A program made the position numbers and the translations under genes. From an uncultured bacterium (GTDB lineage: Bacteria; Patescibacteriota; Minisyncoccia; Phycocordibacterales; UBA9973), in the NCBI GenBank assembly GCA_903838985.1, contig CAIMAO010000014.1, forward strand, positions 1-62,980: a stretch of 62,980 nt of DNA, read 5' to 3'. The notes beneath the pieces were generated by a model. It saw only the letters and a list, made by a program, of their open reading frames with translations. It had not been told where the DNA came from and did no database searches. Every line of letters starts with the position of its first letter. Position 1 is the first letter of the stretch. Below, piece after piece: positions 22,420-39,115 of the stretch.

Positions 22420-22825
22420 AAAATTAAAAGAAAATGCAAAATTACCAAAGTATCATCATCCTGGAGATGTGGGTATGGATCTATATTCTATGGAAGAATA
22501 TACCGTTAAACCAGGGGAAAGACACTACTTTTATCATGGTTTTGCTCTTGAATTTCCTGAAGGTTATGCGGCAATTGTCAAAGATAAATCGAGTATTTCA
22601 AAAGCGGGACTTCATTCGATGGGTGGTGTATTTGATGCTGGTTTTAGAGGAGAATATAATACTTTATTGGTAAATCTTTCTGATGAGTCTTATACTGTAG
22701 AGGTGGGAGATAAAGTAGCTCAGCTTGTTATTTTCCCAGTAGCTATTTCAGAACTGGAAGAAGTAGATGAATTAGGAAATTCAAGTAGAGGTTTAGGTGG
22801 TTTTGGTTCAACGGGTAGAAAATAA
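22403..22825 (+). CDS. dut: dUTP diphosphatase
   Basis: GDVGMDLYS, DAGFRGE and RGLGGFGSTG motifs. Start set at MKIKIKKLKENAKLP (ATG 22403). Confidence 0.85.
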   Translation: MKIKIKKLKENAKLPKYHHPGDVGMDLYSMEEYTVKPGERHYFYHGFALEFPEGYAAIVKDKSSISKAGLHSMGGVFDAGFRGEYNTLLVNLSDESYTVEVGDKVAQLVIFPVAISELEEVDELGNSSRGLGGFGSTGRK

Positions 22826-22826
22826 A

Positions 22827-24566
22827 ATGGACATAAAAACAAAATTAGAAAATTTAATAAGAGAAGCACTTAGTAAACTTGATATAGAAGTTAAAGATAT
22901 TTCTCTTGAACACCCAGCAGATTTAAAAATGGGGGATTTTTCAACAAATATCGCAATGTCTTTTGCAAAGAAAATGGGTGCTAATCCAAAGGAATTAGCA
23001 GAAAAAATCGCAGAAGTCCTTCGACAAGCTCAGGACGATTCGCTAGAGCGAATCGAAGCAAAAAACGGATTTATTAATTTTTATTTATCTCAAGATTTTT
23101 TTGTTAATTCTGTCAAAGAAATTTTAGAAAATAAAGATTTTGGGAAAAATAATATTTTTTCTGGTAAAAAAATAATGGTTGAATATACAGATCCAAACCC
23201 TTTTAAACCATTTCACATTGGACATTTGATGAGTAATGCCATAGGTGAATCTATTTCTCGTATAGTTGAATTTTCTGGCGCAAAAACAATTAGAGCAAAT
23301 TACCAAGGTGATGTTGGCCCACACGTAGCGAAAGCAATTTTTGGTATGTTTAAGGCTGGTCCACCGGCAGATGAATCTGCTCCTGCTTCAGTTTTAGCTC
23401 AGTATATTGGTGAATGTTATTCAGATGGGAGTAACGCCTATGATACTGACGAAGAAGCAAAAAAAGAAATAAATGAGATAAATAAAAAAGTTTATGACAG
23501 AAGTGATGAAGGGGTTAATCAGGTTTATGACTGGGGAAGGAGAGTGACGCTTGAGGCGTTTGAAGAACTTTATAAAATGCTTGGCACAAATTTTAATTAT
23601 TATTTCTTTGAAAGCATTGTTGCTCCTATTGGTTTAAAAATAGTAAATGAAAAACTTAAAGATAAAAAATCTGAAAATATCTTCGAAAAAAGTGATGGAG
23701 CAATAGTCTTTCATGCAGAAAAGTATGATCCGAAATTGCATACGAGAGTTTTCATAAATTCTCAAGGCCTACCAACTTATGAAACAAAAGAATTAGGACT
23801 TACAGAAATGAAGTTTGAAAAAGAAAAATTAGATATGTCAGTAGTTATAACAGCAAATGAGCAAGAAGAGTATATGAAAGTTGTAACTAAGGCCTTGGAG
23901 ATAATGAATCCAGAAATTGCATCTAAAATGAAGCATATTGTTCATGGCATGATGCGCCTCGCTTCTGGAAAGATGTCTTCTAGAAAAGGTAATGTGATTA
24001 CAGGAGAATCTTTACTTTTGGAATCTTGTGAACAAATTTTAGAAAAAATAAAAGATAGAGATTTAACAGAAGAAGAGAAAAAACAAATAAGTAATGATGT
24101 TGGAGTTTCTGCATTGAAATATTCTATTTTGAAACAAAACATTGGTGGAAATATTATTTATGATTTTGAAAAATCTATTTCATTTGAAGGAGATTCTGGT
24201 CCGTATCTACAATATTCATATGCTAGAGCAAGGTCTATTATAGAAAAAGCAAAAATAGAAAATATATTGCCTAGCTTTTTATTAAACAATGAAAATACTG
24301 ACATGTTGCCACTAGGCGATATAGAGAAATTGTTATACAGATTTCCTGAAGTAGTATTTAGGAGCGCAGAAGAATTTGAGCCACACTATATTGCAAACTA
24401 CTTGATAGACATTGCTCGTGCTTTTAATACTTATTATGGTAATACAAAAATAATTGATAAGGATGATTTAATGTCTCCCTACAAAATAGCTCTGACTTTA
24501 GCATTTTCTAATATAATGAAAAATGGATTATATTTACTTGGGATAAAAGCTCCAGAGAAAATGTAA
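22827..24566 (+). CDS. argS: Arginine--tRNA ligase
   Basis: PFHIGHLMSN (HIGH) motif, GFINFYL, and a C-terminal DALR-type anticodon-binding region. Start set at MDIKTKLENL. Confidence 0.9.
   Translation: MDIKTKLENLIREALSKLDIEVKDISLEHPADLKMGDFSTNIAMSFAKKMGANPKELAEKIAEVLRQAQDDSLERIEAKNGFINFYLSQDFFVNSVKEILENKDFGKNNIFSGKKIMVEYTDPNPFKPFHIGHLMSNAIGESISRIVEFSGAKTIRANYQGDVGPHVAKAIFGMFKAGPPADESAPASVLAQYIGECYSDGSNAYDTDEEAKKEINEINKKVYDRSDEGVNQVYDWGRRVTLEAFEELYKMLGTNFNYYFFESIVAPIGLKIVNEKLKDKKSENIFEKSDGAIVFHAEKYDPKLHTRVFINSQGLPTYETKELGLTEMKFEKEKLDMSVVITANEQEEYMKVVTKALEIMNPEIASKMKHIVHGMMRLASGKMSSRKGNVITGESLLLESCEQILEKIKDRDLTEEEKKQISNDVGVSALKYSILKQNIGGNIIYDFEKSISFEGDSGPYLQYSYARARSIIEKAKIENILPSFLLNNENTDMLPLGDIEKLLYRFPEVVFRSAEEFEPHYIANYLIDIARAFNTYYGNTKIIDKDDLMSPYKIALTLAFSNIMKNGLYLLGIKAPEKM
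23017..23055 (+). repeat. G/C-rich motif in argS: 20-mer tccttcgacaagctcaggac (identical to the ftsK copy) followed by palindrome cgattcgct-ag-agcgaatcg
   Basis: Exact 20/20 match to the reverse complement of 45288-45307. Translated here as LRQAQDDSLERIE. Confidence 0.9.
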
Positions 24567-24569
24567 TTT

Positions 24570-25946
24570 ATGACTCAAGATCAAGCCTTAAATATTTTAA
24601 AAACTGGTGCTAATGTTTTTTTGACTGGTGAACCAGGTTCAGGAAAAACATATGTTGTGAATGCTTATGTGAAATATTTGCGTACTTGTTTTGTGGAACC
24701 ATCTATCACAGCGTCCACGGGTATTGCGGCTACACATATAGGAGGAATGACGATACATTCTTGGAGTGGAATAGGCATCAAAACAAAATTAGATAGATAT
24801 GATTTAGATAAAATCGTGACTAGTGAATATATTTCTAAACGTATTCATAAGGCACGAGTTTTGATTATTGATGAGATTTCTATGCTTTCTCCGAATATGC
24901 TTGATATGGTGGACTTGGTTTGTCGCGAAATAAGACAAAACAGTGAAGCATTTGGTGGTTTGCAAGTTATTTTTGTTGGTGATTTTTTTCAATTGCCACC
25001 GATTGTCAAAAAAGATTATATAGAGAAGAAACAAAATAATCTTCTTTCAGATATTCAAAAAAATAATGGCATTTTCGCTTATGACAGTGGAGCTTGGGAG
25101 AGAGCTACTCCTGTGGTTTGTTATTTAACAGAACAACATAGACAGGATGATAAAAATTTTCTTTCTGTTCTTTCGGCAATACGTACCAATAATGTAAAAA
25201 AAGAACATTTGAAACATATCAATACTCGTCAGATCGACATAGAAGATATGCCAGAAGATGTCACGAAACTTTTTTCTCATAATATAAATGTTGATCAAGT
25301 AAATAATGCTGAACTTATGAAATTAGAAACGCAAGTTAAAACATTTATGATGTCTTCGGAGGGGAATGATGCGATAGTATCTGCACTTAAAAAAGGATGT
25401 TTGTCTCCAGAAAAATTGGAATTAAAAGTTGGAGCTATTGTTATGTGCACGAAAAATAATCAGAAAGAAAGATATGTGAATGGCACATTGGGGAATGTGA
25501 TTGCATTTGAAGAATTTAGCGGCTTTCCAATTATTAAAACAAAAAATGGTAGAAATATAACGATTACACCTCTTGATTGGACTGTTGAAGAAAATGGTAA
25601 AATTCGTGCACAGATAACACAAGTGCCACTTCGTTTGGCGTGGGCTATTACAGTGCATAAAAGTCAGGGAATGAGTTTAGATGAAGCTGTCGTTGATTTG
25701 TCTCAAATATTTGAATTTGGTCAAGGTTATGTGGCACTCTCGAGAGTACGTAGACTTTCAGGACTTTATTTACTTGGGATAAATGAACATGCACTTAAAG
25801 TACACCCAGAAATTTTGAAAAAAGATATTGATTTTAGAAATATATCTGAAAATGCCGTAAAAGTTTTTGGTAAACTTTCTAAAAGTGAACTTAAAAAAAT
25901 GCATAGTAATTTTATTGTTGCTTGTGGAGGAAAAACAAAAAAATAG
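24570..25946 (+). CDS. PIF1/RecD-like ATP-dependent DNA helicase
   Basis: Walker A GEPGSGKTY, Walker B LIIDEISM, FVGDFFQLPP, and C-terminal TVHKSQGMS. Confidence 0.8.
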   Translation: MTQDQALNILKTGANVFLTGEPGSGKTYVVNAYVKYLRTCFVEPSITASTGIAATHIGGMTIHSWSGIGIKTKLDRYDLDKIVTSEYISKRIHKARVLIIDEISMLSPNMLDMVDLVCREIRQNSEAFGGLQVIFVGDFFQLPPIVKKDYIEKKQNNLLSDIQKNNGIFAYDSGAWERATPVVCYLTEQHRQDDKNFLSVLSAIRTNNVKKEHLKHINTRQIDIEDMPEDVTKLFSHNINVDQVNNAELMKLETQVKTFMMSSEGNDAIVSALKKGCLSPEKLELKVGAIVMCTKNNQKERYVNGTLGNVIAFEEFSGFPIIKTKNGRNITITPLDWTVEENGKIRAQITQVPLRLAWAITVHKSQGMSLDEAVVDLSQIFEFGQGYVALSRVRRLSGLYLLGINEHALKVHPEILKKDIDFRNISENAVKVFGKLSKSELKKMHSNFIVACGGKTKK

Positions 25947-26019: not shown

Positions 26020-29000
26020 ATGGACGCTAATAAAGAAAATAAGTCAGAAACAGCTTTTAGAGAAGAGCGTATTTTAGAGTTTTGGAAAGAAAATAATGTT
26101 TTTGAAAAATCATTAGAAAAAGAAGCTCCAAAAGGGAATTATGTTTTTTATGATGGCCCTCCTTTTGCTACGGGTCTTCCACATTATGGTCATATTTTAG
26201 GAAGTGTCACCAAAGATGTTATTGGACGTTATCAAACGATGTCTGGTTTTTCTGTGCCACGACGTTGGGGTTGGGATTGTCATGGTTTACCAATAGAAAA
26301 TATTGTTGAAAAAGATTTGAATATTTCTGGTAAGAAAGCCATTGAAGAAATGGGAATAGATAAATTTGTTGAATACGCTCGTAGTAAAGTTTTGACTTAT
26401 GTTTCTGAATGGGAAAAGACGGTTAACCGTATTGGAAGATGGGTGGATTTTAATAATTCTTATAAAACAATGGATAACACTTTCATTGAGAGTGTTTGGT
26501 GGGCGCTTGGAGAATTAAACAAAAAGGAATTACTTTATGAAGGCGTGAGAGTACTCGCATATTGTCCTCGTTGTGAAACTCCGATTGCCAATTCTGAAAT
26601 TGCGATGGATAACAGTTATAAAGATATCACTGATATTTCGGTGTATGTAAAATTTAAATTAAAACCAGGACAAAAGTTTGGGAAGAATGAAGATGGTGAA
26701 TGCACAACGCGAGATAGTGCCTATGTTATTGCATGGACGACAACGCCGTGGACACTCCCAGGAAATACTGCATTGGCTGTAAGTAAAGATGTTTCATATA
26801 GTGCAGTGCGAATTGATGACAAAGAAGAACTTTTGTTTGTTGCCACAGAGTTGGTAAATAAAATTTTTAAAGATCATAAGATTGAAATAGTTCGTACTTT
26901 TATGGGTTCAGGTCTTATTGGGCTTTCTTATGAGCCAATATTTGATTATTACAAAAATATTGATATGCCAAATAAAGAAAATATTTGGAAAGTTTGGCAT
27001 GCAGATTTTGTGACGACAGATGTGGGGACGGGGATAGTTCATGAAGCTCCTGCTTTTGGTGAAGATGATATGAATCTTGCTAAGGAACATAGCATTCCAT
27101 TTATTCGACACGTTGAACCAAATGGTACTTTCTCAAAAGAAGTTTTAGATTTTGTTGGAATAAAAGTTAAACCAAAAGAAGATCATCAATCAACTGATGT
27201 TTTGATAATTAAATTTTTAGCAAAAAATGGAACTCTTTTTGCGAAAGAAAAAATAATTCACTCTTATCCACATTGTTATCGTTGTGAAACCCCACTTCTT
27301 TATTATGCTTTGCCTTCATGGTTTGTGAATATACAAAAAGTCAAAAAAGATTTGCTTAAGAATGCTGAGATAATGAATTGGATTCCAGCTCATTTGAAAG
27401 ATGGACGTTTCAAAAATACAATGGAATCAGCTCCTGATTGGACTATTTCACGTAACCGTTATTGGGCAAGTCCTTTACCTATTTGGAAGTCAGACTCTAA
27501 CGAGATTATGTTTGTGAATTCTATTGAAGATTTAAAGAAAAAAACAAAAAAATCTGGAAATAAATATTTTGTAATGCGACATGGTGGTGCTGAAAGTAAT
27601 CTTAAAGATACTGTAAGTTCTAAAGTTGAAGACGTTGATCATTTAACAGAAGAGGGTAGGAAAGAAGTTTTGAAATCCGTTTTAGAGTTAAAAGACAAAA
27701 AAATTGATTTGATAATAGCTTCTGATTTCATGAGAACTAAGGAAACAGCAGAAATTGTTCAAAGAGAATTAGGACTTTCAAGTGATCAGCTAATTTTTGA
27801 TAAAAGACTATGGGAATTATGTGCAGGAGTTTTTGATGGAAAAACTTGGCAAGAATATTCTGATTTTCGTAAAGGAAAAGACTGGTATTCTTATGTACCA
27901 GAAGATGGAGAATCTTGGAAGCAAATGAAAAGAAGAACAATAGAATTTTTGTATGAGATAGAAGAAAAATATAAAGGAAAGAATATTTTAATAGTTACAC
28001 ATGAAGGTCCAGCTAGATCATTTTTTGTAGGATCTCAAGGATTAAGTGATATTGAAACAATAAAAGTACTAGAAAGTGACGAACTTGGTTTTAAAAACGC
28101 TCAAGTTCGAAATATCGAATTTGTTCCACTTCCTCATAATGAGAATTATGAGCTTGATTTACATAGGCCTTATATAGATAAGATCGTGCTTGTAGATGAA
28201 AAAGGTAAAGAATATAAAAGAATACCAGAAGTGATTGATTGTTGGTTTGAATCTGGTTCAATGCCATTTGCTCAAGATCATTATCCATTTGAAAATTTAG
28301 ACTGGAAAGATAAAAATTTTCCATCTGGTTTTGTCGCAGAGTATATTGCTCAGACAAGGACTTGGTTTTATTATACTCACGTTATTTCTTCTATATTATT
28401 TAATCAAGCACCATTTAAAAATGTTGTGACTACTGGGACTATCTTGGCAGAAGATGGTCAAAAAATGTCAAAATCAAAAAATAATTTTCCAGATCCTTGG
28501 ATATTATTTAATAAATATGGAGTTGACGCACTTCGTTTCTATTTGATGTCTTGTCCGGTTATGAAAGGTGAAGATATTAATTTCTTAGAGAAAGCAGTTC
28601 AGGATATTTCAAATAAAATAATAAATAGATTGAATAATGTTTTAGCTTTCTATGAATTATATCGTGATAGAGAATTGGAAACTTTGGAATATGAAAAGTC
28701 AGATGATATTTTGGATCAATGGATTGTTTCTCGTTTGAATGAATTAATTACTGAAACGACAGATGGGATGGAAAAATATGATATGTCTTTAGCGACAAAA
28801 CCTTTTGATTTATTTATTGGTGATCTTTCTACTTGGTATTTACGTAGATCACGTGACAGAATAAAAGATGGAGATAAAAACGCAAAACAAACTTTATATT
28901 TTGTATTAAAAACTCTCGCAAAATTGATGGCTCCATTTGCGCCATTTTCTGCTGAAGATATTTGGCTAAGATTAAAAAATGAAAAAGAAGTTGAAAGTGT

Positions 29001-29529
29001 TCATTTAGCAGAATGGCCCTTCGCTATCGCTCAGGACTTTCAGCCAGAAGTTTTAAAAAATATGGCAGAAATTAGAAAGATAGTTTCTCTTGGATTTGAT
29101 GCTCGTCAAAAAGCTGGTATAAAAGTTCGTCAGCCTCTTTCTGTATTAAAATTTAAGATAGAAAATAAATTATCTGATGAATTACTTTCTTTAGTTAAAG
29201 ATGAAGTCAATGTAAAAGAAGTAATTTTTGATAAAAACATTGAAGGAGAAATATTTTTAGACATAAACATTACCTCAGAATTGAAACAAGAGGGGGATTA
29301 TCGAGAATTAGTAAGAGCTATTCAAGATATGCGTAAAAAAATGGGACTTACTCCAAGTGACGTGGTTTCTGTCACTATTGAAACGAATGATGAAGGTAAA
29401 AATTTGATCCAAAAATTTGAAAATGATTTAGTAAAAGTTATTCTTGCTTCAAAAATTGAATTCAAAACTAATGAAGGTGAAGAAATAAAAATTGACGAAA
29501 TGGTATTCAAAACATCTATTCAAAAATGA
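26020..29529 (+). CDS. ileS: Isoleucine--tRNA ligase (type 2) carrying an internal histidine-phosphatase (PGAM-like) domain
   Basis: PHYGHILG (HIGH), WTISRNRYW, KMSKSK and DCWFESGSMP motifs. A ~190-aa insert carries RHG (FVMRHGGAESN), SDFMRTKETA and IVTHEG motifs. Confidence 0.9.
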   Translation: MDANKENKSETAFREERILEFWKENNVFEKSLEKEAPKGNYVFYDGPPFATGLPHYGHILGSVTKDVIGRYQTMSGFSVPRRWGWDCHGLPIENIVEKDLNISGKKAIEEMGIDKFVEYARSKVLTYVSEWEKTVNRIGRWVDFNNSYKTMDNTFIESVWWALGELNKKELLYEGVRVLAYCPRCETPIANSEIAMDNSYKDITDISVYVKFKLKPGQKFGKNEDGECTTRDSAYVIAWTTTPWTLPGNTALAVSKDVSYSAVRIDDKEELLFVATELVNKIFKDHKIEIVRTFMGSGLIGLSYEPIFDYYKNIDMPNKENIWKVWHADFVTTDVGTGIVHEAPAFGEDDMNLAKEHSIPFIRHVEPNGTFSKEVLDFVGIKVKPKEDHQSTDVLIIKFLAKNGTLFAKEKIIHSYPHCYRCETPLLYYALPSWFVNIQKVKKDLLKNAEIMNWIPAHLKDGRFKNTMESAPDWTISRNRYWASPLPIWKSDSNEIMFVNSIEDLKKKTKKSGNKYFVMRHGGAESNLKDTVSSKVEDVDHLTEEGRKEVLKSVLELKDKKIDLIIASDFMRTKETAEIVQRELGLSSDQLIFDKRLWELCAGVFDGKTWQEYSDFRKGKDWYSYVPEDGESWKQMKRRTIEFLYEIEEKYKGKNILIVTHEGPARSFFVGSQGLSDIETIKVLESDELGFKNAQVRNIEFVPLPHNENYELDLHRPYIDKIVLVDEKGKEYKRIPEVIDCWFESGSMPFAQDHYPFENLDWKDKNFPSGFVAEYIAQTRTWFYYTHVISSILFNQAPFKNVVTTGTILAEDGQKMSKSKNNFPDPWILFNKYGVDALRFYLMSCPVMKGEDINFLEKAVQDISNKIINRLNNVLAFYELYRDRELETLEYEKSDDILDQWIVSRLNELITETTDGMEKYDMSLATKPFDLFIGDLSTWYLRRSRDRIKDGDKNAKQTLYFVLKTLAKLMAPFAPFSAEDIWLRLKNEKEVESVHLAEWPFAIAQDFQPEVLKNMAEIRKIVSLGFDARQKAGIKVRQPLSVLKFKIENKLSDELLSLVKDEVNVKEVIFDKNIEGEIFLDINITSELKQEGDYRELVRAIQDMRKKMGLTPSDVVSVTIETNDEGKNLIQKFENDLVKVILASKIEFKTNEGEEIKIDEMVFKTSIQK
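29018..29037 (+). repeat. Diverged copy of the G/C-rich motif inside ileS (ccttcgctatcgctcaggac)
   Basis: Shares ccttcg...gctcaggac with the argS/ftsK 20-mer. Translated as PFAIAQD. Confidence 0.6.
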
Positions 29530-30146
29530 ATTTAGAAAATAAAAAACTTGTTTTGTTTGATTTTGATGGGGTGTTGGTAGACACCTTGTTGGTTTGTTAT
29601 TCTATCAATGCTGAAATTCATGAAAACTTATCGTTAGAAGAATATAAAACATTCTTTTTAGGTAATATTTATAGTGCCATTAGAAAAGATGGAACACCTA
29701 AGATATCTTTACCTGAGTTTCCAGAGTTATATGAATTAAGAACAAGAGAAATAATAATTCCTGAGATACTGAAATCTATTTTAAAAGAATTATCTGACTC
29801 TTATATTTTGATAGTTATTTCATCTACCCATACTAAACAAATAAAAAAAATATTAGAAAGAGAAAATGTTTTAGAATGTTTTACTGATATTTTAGGTTCA
29901 GATGTTGAACGAAATAAAGTTATTAAAATAAATTCTGCTTTAGAAAAATATAATATTTCATCGAAGGATGTTGTATTTATCACAGACACTGTCGGTGATG
30001 TCAAAGAAGCGAGGGAATGTGGTGTAGAAGCTATAGCTGTGACATGGGGTTTTCATGACAAAGAGACATTGGAAAAAGTGAATCCAATTGCAATTGTTGA
30101 TGACCCCAAAAATTTATTAAAGATAATTAATAAGGTATTAGAATAG
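29526..30146 (+). CDS. HAD-superfamily hydrolase
   Basis: Motif I LFDFDGVLVDT. C-terminal TDTVGD acidic motif. ATGA overlap with the ileS stop. Confidence 0.75.
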   Translation: MNLENKKLVLFDFDGVLVDTLLVCYSINAEIHENLSLEEYKTFFLGNIYSAIRKDGTPKISLPEFPELYELRTREIIIPEILKSILKELSDSYILIVISSTHTKQIKKILERENVLECFTDILGSDVERNKVIKINSALEKYNISSKDVVFITDTVGDVKEARECGVEAIAVTWGFHDKETLEKVNPIAIVDDPKNLLKIINKVLE

Positions 30147-30779: not shown

Positions 30780-31364
30780 ATGAAAAAAGTATTTATAGTA
30801 CATGGTTTTGGGGGGATGCCAAACGGAGGTTGGATTCCTTGGCTGATGCAAGAATTAGCTCAAAAAAGAGTGTCTGCTTGTGCATTATCTATGCCAGACT
30901 CGAAAGAACCTGTTGTCTCAAAATGGATAGAAGAAATTGCTCATGCTGTAAATAATTCTTTGGAAGATGAAATATATTTAGTAGGGCATAGTTTGGGTGT
31001 GCCAGCAATATTGAGGTATTTGGAATCTACCTCAATAGACAAAAAAATTTCTGGTGTTTTGTTAATGTCTGGTTTTATTAGTCCGCTAGAACCTGAAAAT
31101 AAAGAAAGTAATTATCGTAAAATAGATTCTTTTGTTGTTCCTGAAATAGATTTTAATAAAATAAAAGATAAATCAGATAAATTTGTCGTATTTCATAGTA
31201 TTGATGATCCTGCTGTCCCGTTTTCTCACGGAGAAAAGATTTCTATTGCATTAAATTGTGAGCTTGTAAAAACAGAAAAAGGTGGACATTTTTATATTTT
31301 ATCTGAACCTATCTGTTATAAAATTCCAGAAGTCTTAAGCATAATGGAAAAAATTTTAAGCTAA
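30780..31364 (+). CDS. Small alpha/beta serine hydrolase (YdeN/RBBP9-like)
   Basis: IVHGFGG and the nucleophile elbow VGHSLG. ~190 aa. Confidence 0.65.
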   Translation: MKKVFIVHGFGGMPNGGWIPWLMQELAQKRVSACALSMPDSKEPVVSKWIEEIAHAVNNSLEDEIYLVGHSLGVPAILRYLESTSIDKKISGVLLMSGFISPLEPENKESNYRKIDSFVVPEIDFNKIKDKSDKFVVFHSIDDPAVPFSHGEKISIALNCELVKTEKGGHFYILSEPICYKIPEVLSIMEKILS

Positions 31365-31942
31365 TGCATCATATTTATCACACAGAAGGCATAATATTGA
31401 GTAGTGCAAATTTTGGAGAAACAGGAAAATACTATTCTATCTTTACTCGTGACTTAGGTATGATATATGCTTCGGCACAAGGCGTACGAAAAATGTCTTC
31501 GAAACTTCGTTTTGTTTTGCAAGATTTTGCTTATGTAAAAATTGATTTTGTAAAAGGGAAAGATTTTTGGAGGATTACGAGTGCTTCAAAAACAAACAAA
31601 CTTGAAAAATTGTCTAGATCAGAAGTTTTTGAAGTTTTTGTAAACATTTCTAAATTATTAAAACGCTTACTGGCGGGGGAAGACCCAAATAAAATTTTGT
31701 TTCTCGATTTATTAAATTGTTTATCAGTTTTGGAAGAAACAAAAAGCAAAGATGAATTGCGTAATATTGAGGCTATTATTGTTTTGCGTATCTTAAATAA
31801 CTTAGGATATATAGGAGGTGATGAAGTATTAAAAGATTTTATTAAATCACCATTTGAGGAAGATTTGTTGTTTAGAGTCTCTAGTAGTAGGGATAAAATA
31901 TTGTATCAAATCAATAAAGCACTTAAAGAAACTCATCTATAA
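31364..31942 (+). CDS. recO: DNA repair protein RecO
   Basis: N-terminal OB-type pattern TEGIILSSANFGETGKYYSIFTRDLGMIYASAQGVRK typical of RecO. Confidence 0.7.
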   Translation: MHHIYHTEGIILSSANFGETGKYYSIFTRDLGMIYASAQGVRKMSSKLRFVLQDFAYVKIDFVKGKDFWRITSASKTNKLEKLSRSEVFEVFVNISKLLKRLLAGEDPNKILFLDLLNCLSVLEETKSKDELRNIEAIIVLRILNNLGYIGGDEVLKDFIKSPFEEDLLFRVSSSRDKILYQINKALKETHL

Positions 31943-36585: not shown

Positions 36586-37668
36586 ATGTCTGAAAAGAAT
36601 AACATAAATTCTATTTCAATATCTACCGGTACAATAATCCGATTCTTTTTGGTTGCACTTGGTTTATATTTGATTTGGTTTTTGAGGAGCATTTTCTTGG
36701 TTCTTTTGACTGCTATTATTATCGCTTCTTTTGTTGAATCAGCCTTACCTTATTTCAAAAAAATAAAGATAAATAGAGTCTTGGGAGTGGTTATTTTATA
36801 CGTATTTTCTATTCTTTTTTTAGCTTTGTTTTTTTACCTTTTTGCTCCACTTCTTATAACAGAAGTTTATAATCTTTCTAATTTCTTATCTTCTTATATT
36901 CCAGATTCCACGATTTTAAATTATTTTAGAAATGATGCATTTTCTGGTGCTAAAGACATTGTTAATAATCTTTCTCACAGTCTTTCTCTTACAACACTTA
37001 TTTCTACTTCAAATGCTTTTGTCACAAACTTGTCTGGAGGATTTTTCCAAGTACTTTCTGTGGCCTTTGGTAGCATATTCAATGTTGTACTTATTGTTCT
37101 TATTTCCTTTTATCTTTCAATAGAAGAAAATGGTATAGAAAAGTTTTTGAGAATTATTTTACCGATAGAGCATGAAGAATATGCTGTAGATTTATGGAAA
37201 CGTTCCCGTAGAAAGATTGCATTGTGGATGAAAGGGCAAATGTTGCTCGGTGTTCTCATCGCTATTTTGACTTACTTAATGCTTTCTTTGATAGGCATTG
37301 AATATGCTCTTCTTTTGGCTATTATTGCAGGAATAATGGAGCTCATACCTTATGGTATTTTGGTTGCACTTATCCCAGCTGTATATTTTTCTTATCTTTC
37401 AGGGGGGCTTTCAAGTGCTTTAGTTGTAACTGGTGCTTATACGATACTTCACCAATTTGAAGTTTTCTTGTTTTCTCCTTTAGTTATAAAAAATGTAGTA
37501 GGTCTTTCTCCACTTGTTGTTATTATTGCGGCATTAGTTGGTTTTGAACTTGGTGGCTTCTGGGGTTTAGTACTTGCCATTCCTGTGGCTGTATTTGTTA
37601 TGGAATTACTTGGTGATATTGAAAAACATAAAACTTTTAATAGAACAACAAATGACGAAACAAAATAG
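36586..37668 (+). CDS. AI-2E/PerM-family (UPF0118) membrane transporter
   Basis: Polytopic membrane ORF with the family's typical length and C-terminal ALIPAVYF...GL..VLAIP pattern. Start set at MSEKNNINS. Confidence 0.6.
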   Translation: MSEKNNINSISISTGTIIRFFLVALGLYLIWFLRSIFLVLLTAIIIASFVESALPYFKKIKINRVLGVVILYVFSILFLALFFYLFAPLLITEVYNLSNFLSSYIPDSTILNYFRNDAFSGAKDIVNNLSHSLSLTTLISTSNAFVTNLSGGFFQVLSVAFGSIFNVVLIVLISFYLSIEENGIEKFLRIILPIEHEEYAVDLWKRSRRKIALWMKGQMLLGVLIAILTYLMLSLIGIEYALLLAIIAGIMELIPYGILVALIPAVYFSYLSGGLSSALVVTGAYTILHQFEVFLFSPLVIKNVVGLSPLVVIIAALVGFELGGFWGLVLAIPVAVFVMELLGDIEKHKTFNRTTNDETK

Positions 37669-39115
37669 TTTTTACATCACTACGACATTACCTTATGTAA
37701 ATGCTCCTCTCCACATGGGGCATGCTCTTGAACTTGTGCGTGCAGATACTATTGCTCGTTATAAAAAACTTATTGGTTGTGATGTGTATTTTAATACAGG
37801 CACAGACGAGCATGGAATAAAAATATACGAGAAAGCTAAAGAGAAAAATTTAGAGGTTAAAGATTTTGTTGATCAAGGTTTTGAAACTTTTAAAGAGCAG
37901 TTGAAAATGTTTGGAGTGAGTGAAGATATTCATTTTATTCGCACTACAGATGAACATCATGAGAAATCAGCACAAGAATTTTGGAAAAGAGTTTCTGAAA
38001 ATGGCTATATTTATAAAAAAAATTATGAAGCCAAGTATTGTGTTGGATGTGAAAGTGAAAAAACTGATTCTGAATTAGAAAATAATGAATGTAAAGAACA
38101 TCCAGGTGTAAAAATTTCAATAATTAAAGAAGAAAATTATTTTTTCAAATATTCTGCGTTTCAGGAAAAACTCTTAGACTTCTATGAAAAAAATCCAAAT
38201 TTTATTGTTCCAGATTTTCGTTTCAATGAAATAAAAAGTTTCGTGAATAATGGTTTACAAGATTTTTCTATTTCAAGATTAAAATCCAAAATGCCATGGG
38301 GAATAGAGGTGCCAGGGGATTCTGAGCACGTAATGTATGTTTGGTTTGATGCATTAGTAAACTATATTTCCACACTTGGTTGGCCTGAAAATATTGAACA
38401 ATTTGAGAAATATTGGATAAATGGAACACCCACACAATATTGTGGTAAAGATAATACCCGTTTTCAAGGTGCTATGTGGCAGGCTATGCTTATGGCAGCT
38501 TTTGGAGACGATAAACATTGTTCTAGTCAGATAGTTGTAGATGGTTTTATTACAGGTGAAAATGGTGTCAGAATGTCTAAAACTATAGGAAATGTCGTTG
38601 ATCCTAGGGATGTAGTAAATGAATATGGCACAGATGCTCTCAGATATTTTTTGTTGAGAGAAATAAGTAGTTTTGAGGATAGTCCATTTACTATAGAGCG
38701 TTTCAAAGATGCTTACAATTCTGGGCTTGCAAATGGATTGGGGAATTTAGTTTCAAGAACTATGCAGATGGTAGTTTCATATGGTATTGATATATCTCTT
38801 GTGGATGAGAAAAGTTTTATTTTTAATCATGATTATTCGTTCTCTTCACTTGAAAATTTCAAAATAAAAGATGCAATGGACTATATTTGGGATTGTATTT
38901 CTACTACTAATTTAATGATTCAAAATAAAGAACCTTATAAAAAAATAAAAATAAATCCAGATGAAGCAAAGAAAGATATAGTACAGATTGTACAACAGTT
39001 GTTTGACATTGCTTTTATGTTAGAACCGATGTTACCTAATGTTTCAGAGCAAATTATTTTGTTATTGAAAGAAAATAAAAAGCCAGAACAGCCACTATTT
39101 TTACGTAAAGAATAA
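37652..39115 (+). CDS. metG: Methionine--tRNA ligase
   Basis: PYVNAPLHMGH (HIGH), RMSKTIGN (KMSKS-like), and Zn knuckle CVGCES...C.EH. Start set at MTKQNSFY, which overlaps the upstream gene by 17 nt. Confidence 0.9.
   Translation: MTKQNSFYITTTLPYVNAPLHMGHALELVRADTIARYKKLIGCDVYFNTGTDEHGIKIYEKAKEKNLEVKDFVDQGFETFKEQLKMFGVSEDIHFIRTTDEHHEKSAQEFWKRVSENGYIYKKNYEAKYCVGCESEKTDSELENNECKEHPGVKISIIKEENYFFKYSAFQEKLLDFYEKNPNFIVPDFRFNEIKSFVNNGLQDFSISRLKSKMPWGIEVPGDSEHVMYVWFDALVNYISTLGWPENIEQFEKYWINGTPTQYCGKDNTRFQGAMWQAMLMAAFGDDKHCSSQIVVDGFITGENGVRMSKTIGNVVDPRDVVNEYGTDALRYFLLREISSFEDSPFTIERFKDAYNSGLANGLGNLVSRTMQMVVSYGIDISLVDEKSFIFNHDYSFSSLENFKIKDAMDYIWDCISTTNLMIQNKEPYKKIKINPDEAKKDIVQIVQQLFDIAFMLEPMLPNVSEQIILLLKENKKPEQPLFLRKE

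Follow-up and report, generated by a model that had tools for sequence, protein, structure and literature searches.

Why should an isoleucyl-tRNA synthetase (IleRS) carry a second, apparently complete enzyme within its catalytic body, and what might that enzyme do there? The question is raised by a 62,980-nt stretch of DNA (hereafter the window; contig CAIMAO010000014.1 of assembly GCA_903838985.1) from an uncultured bacterium of the Candidate Phyla Radiation (CPR), in which the gene ileS (26020..29529, + strand) contains a histidine phosphatase domain. Judging from sequence comparison and structure prediction, this insert has all the parts of a branch-1 histidine phosphatase, including a competent predicted active site, and its distribution, either nested within IleRS or encoded directly beside it, provides strong comparative grounds to regard the phosphatase as a partner of the synthetase.

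The host protein, 1169 amino acids (aa) encoded in a single uninterrupted open reading frame (ORF), is by its sequence a type-2 IleRS, as supported by TIGR00392, Pfam and PDB matches. It scores 843.8 bits against TIGR00392 (the ileS equivalog model, cut-off 621.4) despite the insert splitting the match. The best PDB matches are Priestia megaterium IleRS2 (8C8U/8C8V), the yeast and Candida enzymes and Thermus 1ILE, while the type-1 structures 8C9E and 1FFY match far more weakly. Full-length homology (E ~1e-210) links it to the eukaryote-like, mupirocin-tolerant type-2 enzymes (P. megaterium 8C8U/8C8V, Thermus thermophilus 1ILE, yeast 7D5C and 8WND), with which it shares the HIGH-type and KMSKS motifs, the CP1 editing motifs, the DUF5915-type C-terminus (aa 1078-1169 in Pfam) and the zinc cysteines of the CP core (C182/C185/C419/C422). 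The HIGH motif, present as HYGH (aa 55-58), the editing motif TTTPWT (240-245), KMSKS (815-819) and GTGIVHEAPAFGEDD are invariant or near-invariant across 78 IleRS homologues. The protein does not belong to the plasmid-borne mupirocin-resistance type MupA/MupB, scoring 684 and 679 bits against NCBIfam exception models that have a cut-off of 1900. No tRNA genes were found in the window (32.8% G+C), which has a single IleRS and a single phosphatase domain.

Where exactly does the insert sit? As delimited by Pfam, alignment and model, the nested domain (His_Phos_1, branch 1) comprises 190 residues, aa 512-701 (27553..28122, + strand), running from SGNKYFVMRHG to VRNIEF; these limits depart by only 3-8 nt from the 27556-28130 given in a preliminary description of the window. 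From the sequence, its location is the tip of the CP3 subdomain, which it divides into an N-terminal half (aa 474-511; 27439..27552, + strand; WTISRNRYW...PIW...SIEDLKKKTKK), where zinc-knuckle cysteines have been lost (S491, N494), and a C-terminal half (aa 702-739; 28123..28236, + strand), where the near-invariant linker VPLPHNENYEL is followed by DLHRPYID...KRIPEVI and leads into D740-C-W742-FESG. The conserved landmarks on both sides are easily recognized (WTISRNRYW at aa 474-482, PIW at 487-489, DLHRPYID at 713-720, DCWFESGSMP at 740-749). The distance between them, which had been estimated at ~230 residues against ~35-40 in other type-2 enzymes, is indeed enlarged, with 223 residues from W489 to D713 as compared with the ~30-60 residues that the stretch from the PxW motif through the DLHRPxID motif spans in insert-less type-2 IleRS. 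In the alignment with 8C8U, residues 11-508 and 707-1138 of the window protein correspond to residues 10-477 and 481-919, so that ~198 residues replace a 3-residue loop of the Priestia enzyme. A 128-sequence alignment gives a cleanly bimodal picture, insert-bearing proteins having 191-217 residues in the insert columns and all others 5-29.

The insert starts directly after ...EL-x-K-x-SG, the consensus of the CP3 tip in insert-less type-2 IleRS, and the junction residues S512-G513-N514-x-Y516-F517 and F701...P705-H706 are near-invariant in a 200-sequence alignment. Such flanks, with S512 and H706-N707, might evoke an intein, but the insert folds as a histidine phosphatase and residue 708 is E, A or K, which leaves no +1 nucleophile. 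The ‘SG.K’ of insert-less IleRS is not an excision scar either, ELEKxSGxKVxDLH being the general CP3-tip consensus even in phosphatase-free IleRS2. The residues P-L-P-H-N of the C-terminal linker probably belong to CP3 rather than to the insert, because T. thermophilus IleRS has a PLP-type sequence before DxHRP. According to the domain boundaries published for the Candida and yeast enzymes, CP3 is the stretch from SRNRYWG to DxWF; in yeast IleRS, the pocket for the tRNA 3' end (A76) and reveromycin A is lined by both extremities of CP3, the CP2-3 linker ARDWNVSRNRYWG on one side and D527/W529 on the other, and a zinc motif is present in Thermus CP3 (PMC7191050, PMC7955072).

Is the nested domain a functional phosphatase? 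On the whole protein, Pfam PF00300 matches aa 517-670 (E=8.2e-27, 94.6 bits, far above the gathering score of 21.7) and cuts the tRNA-synt_1 match in two; the insert alone reaches 99.3 bits. All the motifs quoted in the preliminary description are found in the window IleRS, those of the phosphatase being FVMRHGGAESN (aa 517-527), LTEEGRKEV (542-550), IIASDFMRTKETAEIV (565-580) and ILIVTHEGP (656-664). The intactness claimed there is borne out by the catalytic Arg, His, Arg, Glu and His, which are correctly aligned and near-invariant in more than 260 sequences. In the 200-sequence alignment, the RHG motif R520-H521-G522 (27577..27585), which aligns with that of PhoE 1EBB and provides H521 as predicted phospho-accepting nucleophile, is conserved in 200/200, 200/200 and 197/200 sequences for R, H and G, respectively, and the phosphate-pocket residue N527 (27598..27600) in 195/200. 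The second phosphate-binding arginine, R572 (27733..27735; motif S568-x-x-x-R-T-K-E-T), and the second catalytic histidine, H661 (28000..28002; IVTHEGP), occur in 200/200 each, and the predicted general acid/base E599 (27814..27816) in 197/197, being Asp in a minority of distant relatives (all these positions on the + strand). The seven-residue signature RHGNREH is exact in 213 of 262 sequences and has conservative variants in almost all others; damaged or partial catalytic sets occur only in P0175 (R572W), P0282 (E599N), P0208 (degenerate) and P0253.

The AF2 model of the insert alone is confident (pLDDT 93.2, pTM 0.90), and the insert is also the most confident region of the full-length model. 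Its top Foldseek matches are all histidine phosphatases (TM 0.74-0.79, E down to 2.6e-14), namely 200-aa phosphomonoesterases such as iPSP1 4IJ6, mycobacterial hydrolases, TIGAR, PhoE 1H2E, HFP 9MMH, GpgP and CobC. Enzymes of this family hydrolyse phosphomonoesters, or act as mutases, via a phospho-histidine intermediate. Assignment to CobC, dPGM, PSP or SixA was rejected, every score lying under the curated NCBIfam cut-off. With the whole protein, the scores were 75.2 vs 162.9 bits for CobC, 73.8 vs 225 for dPGM_arch, 43.5 vs 277 for PSP1, 39.9 vs 350 for PspA and 37.6 vs 261 for GpmB; for SixA, the insert alone scored 33.6 vs 74.5 bits. The insert is thus a family member that misses all the named-subfamily cut-offs and to which these models assign no substrate class.

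Could the nested architecture be an artefact, that is, a chimeric contig or a mis-joined ORF? The preliminary description had raised the objection of an assembly chimera, and one observation seems to favour it, as in four lake-water metagenome runs the Logan contigs are all interrupted at the 5' junction, 27540-27572 (the Logan evidence being at contig level, with older runs stored as contigs only). However, this 33-mer has about twice the depth of its flanks and encodes the near-invariant KKSGNKYFVMRHG junction common to co-occurring strains, and therefore forms a branch point in the assembly graph. The alternative left branches translate to VIGSIADLKA and DLKSKTKKST, which correspond to the CP3 of IleRS from co-occurring relatives and enter the same phosphatase start, implying that the same junction exists in other strains. 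In addition, the 3' junction is spanned by single Logan contigs in three runs, the identical 1169-aa protein occurs with the same neighbour genes on 10 contigs from several independent sample assemblies, and hundreds of independent metagenome-assembled genomes and one single-amplified genome have the same architecture in uninterrupted ORFs. The objection thus fails, and we give practically no credence to an artefact of assembly or annotation.

The survey of IleRS sequences proposed together with that first description reveals how widespread the insertion is. It had been called unusual, which holds among characterised synthetases but not in the sampled Paceibacteria-type relatives, where it is the norm. 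All the 120 best full-length IleRS homologues (61-77% identical, 1144-1232 aa) carry PF00300. The same junctions recur in GTDB, where no fewer than 382 species representatives (Paceibacteria/Parcubacteria) encode the insert with both flanks in uninterrupted ORFs. When 1.84 billion cluster representatives were searched exhaustively, the domain turned up in 104 of the 150 best ones (clusters at 50% identity). The genome records of the closest relatives carry the labels Candidatus Nomurabacteria, Paceibacteria or Parcubacteria, and public records name the insert-bearing proteins ‘isoleucine--tRNA ligase’ or ‘class I tRNA ligase family protein’. Some database proteins combining PF00133 and PF00300 (P0001, P0003, P0031, P0033) are pieces of 195-315 aa on long contigs, and in one locus (L081, ENA contig_37099) ileS appears as ORFs of 602, 218, 219 and 106 aa overlapping in different frames. 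Such fragmented proteins most likely reflect indel errors or pseudogenes and not split synthetases; an alternative code or a truly split gene was discarded for P0001, P0003, P0031, P0033 and P0006, the GTDB loci being uninterrupted ORFs of 1100-1250 aa under code 11.

Does the phosphatase also exist without the synthetase? The nearest relatives of the insert outside IleRS are proteins of ~190 aa from Staskawiczbacteria and other Parcubacteria, 37-46% identical to it, and these free-standing orthologues keep the same catalytic set. For one of them (P0013, with 42% identity to the insert), a mere 2 nt separate the gene from argS upstream and 4 nt from an insert-less ileS of 946 aa downstream, in the gene order argS-phosphatase-ileS-x-recO, which is found on at least 24 contigs. 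We scanned GTDB genomes with standalone phosphatases as sole query and classified the 80 resulting loci by local searches. The domain lies inside ileS in 44/80 and is a separate gene directly upstream of ileS, mostly overlapping or within 40 nt, in 32/80; as for the remaining loci, ileS is on the opposite strand in one and was not found in the fetched flank in three. In none of the 80 loci was the phosphatase inside argS or any gene other than ileS. Conversely, none of 125 insert-bearing loci has a second phosphatase copy within 4-5 kb, so that the nested and adjacent forms are alternatives in the sampled loci, and an intermediate state with a free-standing and a nested copy together was not encountered there. 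A second, divergent type-2 IleRS clade, with ~35-40% core identity to the window protein and the motif LISKKRYWGL, also has a free-standing phosphatase directly upstream (L090-L095, L098, L101-L103, L105, L108, L110, L132), which extends the pairing across deeply separated IleRS lineages.

The nested form itself has more than one address. When the domain of the 104 cluster representatives was mapped to window coordinates and its flanks were read, four nesting sites emerged, the most common being site A, that of the window protein. Site A'' is flanked on its N- and C-terminal sides by DLHKHFVD..C.KC and KRIPEVLDCWF, respectively (P0291, P0286); site B by SGSMPYAQxHYPF and FPADFIAEGLDQTRGWF (P0194, P0222, P0308, P0277, P0269, P0280, P0282, P0286); and site C, where the anticodon-binding domain starts, by AYxFFxTYANID and LDxWIxSEL (P0261, P0237, P0268, P0191, P0277, P0269). 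The site-B protein P0222 is annotated as Peregrinibacteria, a different CPR class. Some IleRS even contain two phosphatase copies, in tandem at site A (P0199) or at two sites (A+C, B+C or A''+B in P0191, P0277, P0269 and P0286). By contrast, no N-terminal phosphatase fusion was found among the full-length proteins mapped, despite the 4-nt gap between the two genes in the P0013 locus; that such a read-through fusion is never seen suggests selection on position. The repeated internal nesting, the specificity for ileS and the near-invariant junction residues together suggest that the association between phosphatase and IleRS has been selected and is not accidental.

How did the nested form arise? 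The most likely source of the nested copy is the adjacent gene. All site-A proteins have in common a C-terminal linker, (L/F)P(H/Y/F)(N/D)-x5-(D/N)(L/F)HRP, that insert-less IleRS lack, and this homology favours one origin at site A; repeated clean excision is argued against by the CP3 tips of insert-less proteins, which look fully ancestral. We built neighbour-joining trees of the IleRS core, five sub-regions, the neighbouring ArgRS and the phosphatase, the last one almost without bootstrap support. On every tree the nested and standalone states are strongly clustered but non-monophyletic, requiring 5-9 changes by parsimony as compared with ~25 for shuffled labels. In one shallow case, a standalone and a nested locus (L144 and L138) group with a bootstrap of 100 and have cores ~70% identical, with phosphatases 40% identical. 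At site A, both copies may have coexisted for long before being lost differentially, or cassette-like transfer may have taken place among lineages, or the trees themselves may be in error.

The window gene is itself a mosaic in its divergence. Compared with the L003 group (the ‘E43’ clade: L002, L003, L020 and others), its catalytic core is ~46-52% identical, its insert ~66% and its C-terminal domains ~70%; compared with the L004 group (L004, L010 and others), the core is 94-97% identical and the insert 53%. From the sequences, this pattern suggests that in one lineage the catalytic body was replaced or went through a burst of change. Recent recombination was rejected as the cause of the discordance between core and insert, as four-fold (synonymous) sites are saturated in all ileS regions, which thus bear no sign of recent transfer. 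The cysteines of the ancestral CP3 zinc knuckle (CxxC...CxC) are kept in 28/28 insert-less and 54/100 nested proteins, and have been lost in 45/100 nested ones, including the window IleRS, where they are absent from aa 489-497 and 722-731 (nt ~27484-27510 and 28183-28212). This confinement of the loss to insert-bearing IleRS suggests that the phosphatase domain may have made the zinc site dispensable.

What, then, could the phosphatase be doing? We lean, if modestly, towards a catalytically competent phosphatase of the PhoE/CobC/iPSP size class that was recruited in CPR as a physical partner of IleRS and acts tethered near the acceptor end or active site. By family chemistry, H521 would attack a phosphomonoester held by R520, R572, N527 and H661, E599 would protonate the leaving group, and the phospho-histidine intermediate would then be hydrolysed. 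Our best guess is that the tethered enzyme would act on a phosphomonoester bound at, or released from, the acceptor-end/active-site region, a task that the free-standing form would fulfil as a subunit of its own, translated along with IleRS. A nucleotide-type small molecule is a tentative candidate for the substrate, and a 3'-phosphorylated tRNA end a somewhat more doubtful one. It is conceivable, though we would not bet on it, that CPR IleRS needs a dedicated phosphomonoesterase, that this coupling drove at least four separate nestings or immediate adjacency, and that IleRS serves as a hub for nucleotide- or tRNA-processing enzymes (NUDIX, kinase, GNAT, esterase); candidate roles for the dedicated enzyme would be healing of tRNA(Ile) 3'-phosphates right at the synthetase, removal of a blocking phosphorylated nucleotide or erasure of an inhibitory phosphate from IleRS.

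Several observations speak against a tethered enzyme acting on the business end of IleRS. The closest solved relatives of the insert act on unrelated small metabolites, and we know of no histidine phosphatase described as an RNA 3'-phosphatase. Among the 200 sequences, variability within the domain peaks in the cap region (~aa 600-630), implying that there is no conserved specificity pocket. The insert evolves fast, since the window protein and that of L004 are 97% identical in the N-core and 53% in the insert, and mean distances within the window's own core clade are ~0.24 for the core and ~0.9-1.2 for the insert. Net charge and isoelectric point offer no clue to RNA binding, as the charge ranges from -7 to +26 in standalone and from -14 to +25 in nested phosphatases, following lineage and not state. 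The four nesting sites entail that there is no single fixed geometry with respect to the active site, and hence tethering instead. Finally, other enzymes are nested in CPR IleRS as well: NUDIX (P0240, P0212; MutT/ADP-ribose-pyrophosphatase-like and nested in the CP1 region), GNAT (P0280, P0282), a Ser_hydrolase (P0268) and, beside the phosphatase, a P-loop kinase (P0216; AAA_18/AAA_33, with weak matches to small-molecule kinases and Pnkp1, E 0.02-0.05). In these lineages, small enzymes seem to use IleRS as a general docking platform, and a general ‘host gene’ phenomenon fits this diversity of unrelated guests as well as a specific coupling does.

The foremost rival explanation is capture of a neighbour for co-expression only, in which a housekeeping phosphomonoesterase would have nested in permissive surface loops of IleRS in compact genomes, thereby securing its expression, stoichiometry or stability. 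The unrelated guests, the variety of sites, the rapid evolution of the insert and its small-metabolite relatives all agree with it, as does the Ser_hydrolase family, nested in P0268 and encoded by a free-standing gene downstream of ileS in the window. Yet mere capture does not readily account for the 76 of 80 phosphatase-seeded loci tied to ileS with none in argS, which is equally adjacent, nor for nesting at no fewer than four internal loops when the N-terminal read-through fusion is never seen, for the near-invariant junction residues, or for the persistence of the association across IleRS clades only ~35-40% identical in their cores; we consider it rather unlikely, albeit a serious contender. 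A tethered partner could also be a cis-acting protein phosphatase that removes an inhibitory phosphate from IleRS, such as one placed by a HipA-like toxin kinase, and would thus be a built-in eraser or immunity module. HipA-like toxin kinases phosphorylate GltX and TrpS, and SixA, PGAM5 and Sts are protein phosphatases of the same superfamily; the tethering at loops of the catalytic body, the kinase domain beside the phosphatase in P0216 and the combination of a variable, fast-evolving surface with an invariant catalytic core would fit such a conflict. Nevertheless, the insert retains the cap region typical of small-molecule members and stays well under the SixA cut-off, no kinase partner was found in the conserved neighbourhood, and the kinase domain of P0216 matches small-molecule kinases, weakly, making this role improbable. 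Least plausible among the biological alternatives, and very improbable in our opinion, is a mainly structural domain that replaces the CP3 zinc knuckle as a scaffold, with vestigial catalysis. Knuckle cysteines have been lost only in insert-bearing proteins (45/100 vs 0/28), and a few lineages keep the domain with damaged catalysis (P0175, P0282, P0208), but more than half of the insert-bearing proteins (54/100) have both zinc cysteines and insert, catalytic residues are invariant in >95% of >260 sequences at ~40% overall identity, and the free-standing orthologues keep the catalytic set.

How does this architecture compare with known systems? The window domain resembles the branch-1 phosphomonoesterases PhoE/YhfR (1EBB, 1H2E), CobC (6NRU, 6E4B), iPSP1 (4IJ5, 4IJ6), TIGAR, GpgP and HFP (9MMH) in fold, size, the RHG...R...E...H set and the cap region. 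It differs from them in being nested in another enzyme or encoded beside ileS, and in lacking the R-x-QG / FTGW segment that usually follows RHG in the family. Compared with other type-2 IleRS, the window protein bears a 190-aa enzyme domain in CP3 and has lost the zinc knuckle of T. thermophilus. Histidine phosphatases fused to another catalytic domain are known from the RNase H/CobC-type acid phosphatase (PRK07238, Rv2228c type) and from PFK-2/FBPase-2, but these are end-to-end fusions with other partner enzymes whereas the window domain is nested; PRK07238 matches aa 507-668 of the window protein with 60.8 bits, far under its cut-off of 326. A likewise nested hydrolytic domain is the CP1 editing domain, inserted in the class Ia Rossmann fold and placed differently in bacterial and archaeal/eukaryal LeuRS, so that lineage-dependent insertion points are common to both; however, CP1 is ancient, universal and acts on aminoacyl esters, while the window domain is CPR-restricted, a predicted phosphomonoesterase and a free-standing gene in sister lineages. 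The architecture can be described as an accretion of a catalytic domain to a class Ia synthetase, and its nearest curated precedent is the GNAT-containing IleRS of NCBIfam NF040702 (ileS_w_GNAT, ‘isoleucine--tRNA ligase, N-acetyltransferase domain-containing’), an IleRS with an extra enzyme domain. The window protein falls outside this family (326.7 bits vs a cut-off of 1999), its extra domain being a histidine phosphatase and not a GNAT; both domains occur together in the CPR IleRS P0280 and P0282.

Around ileS, only argS (22797..24566, + strand) and recO (31364..31942, + strand) are broadly conserved neighbours, the former upstream, with the free-standing phosphatase between it and ileS in insert-less relatives, and the latter as downstream flank of the argS-[phosphatase]-ileS block. 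The HAD gene, a 186-aa ORF, the Ser_hydrolase and the PIF1 helicase are lineage-specific. The gene for the PIF1-family helicase (24570-25946, + strand) occupies, between argS and ileS, the very place that in relatives is empty or taken by the free-standing phosphatase, and no homologue of it was found in the flanks of 160 other loci. Downstream, a HAD_2 hydrolase gene (29526-30146, + strand) overlaps the ileS stop codon (ATGA) and a free-standing Ser_hydrolase gene (PF06821; 30780-31364, + strand) follows three genes after ileS, so that, with the nested phosphatase, three hydrolase-type enzymes are encoded in or just downstream of the window ileS; homologues of the HAD and Ser_hydrolase genes occur in only ~10 of 124 related insert-bearing loci. 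An antisense ORF of 88 aa (28091-28357, - strand) over the insert 3' end and CP3 is very unlikely to be a gene, the region being strongly conserved as coding sequence. Farther away, a second class I synthetase ORF of ~513 aa (37571-39112, + strand) is MetRS-like, with a weak match to the IleRS profile and none to the phosphatase profile.

Aminoacyl-tRNA synthetases are among the most conserved enzymes, and new catalytic domains within their body are rare and have been informative before, as in the case of the CP1 editing domain. An apparently active phosphatase shared by hundreds of uncultured CPR species, occurring in two interchangeable forms and nested independently at several loops, constitutes unusually strong comparative evidence for a functional partnership, one that apparently had not been described before, since a full-text literature search found no description of a phosphatase in or beside IleRS. 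Without a mechanistic coupling, the family would still illustrate neatly how, in streamlined genomes, a domain can be nested repeatedly from a neighbour gene, and the nesting sites would map the permissive insertion loops of a class Ia synthetase. Should the coupling be true, tRNA charging in a very large and little-understood section of the bacterial tree would turn out to involve an auxiliary activity, or a layer of regulation or repair, that is new.

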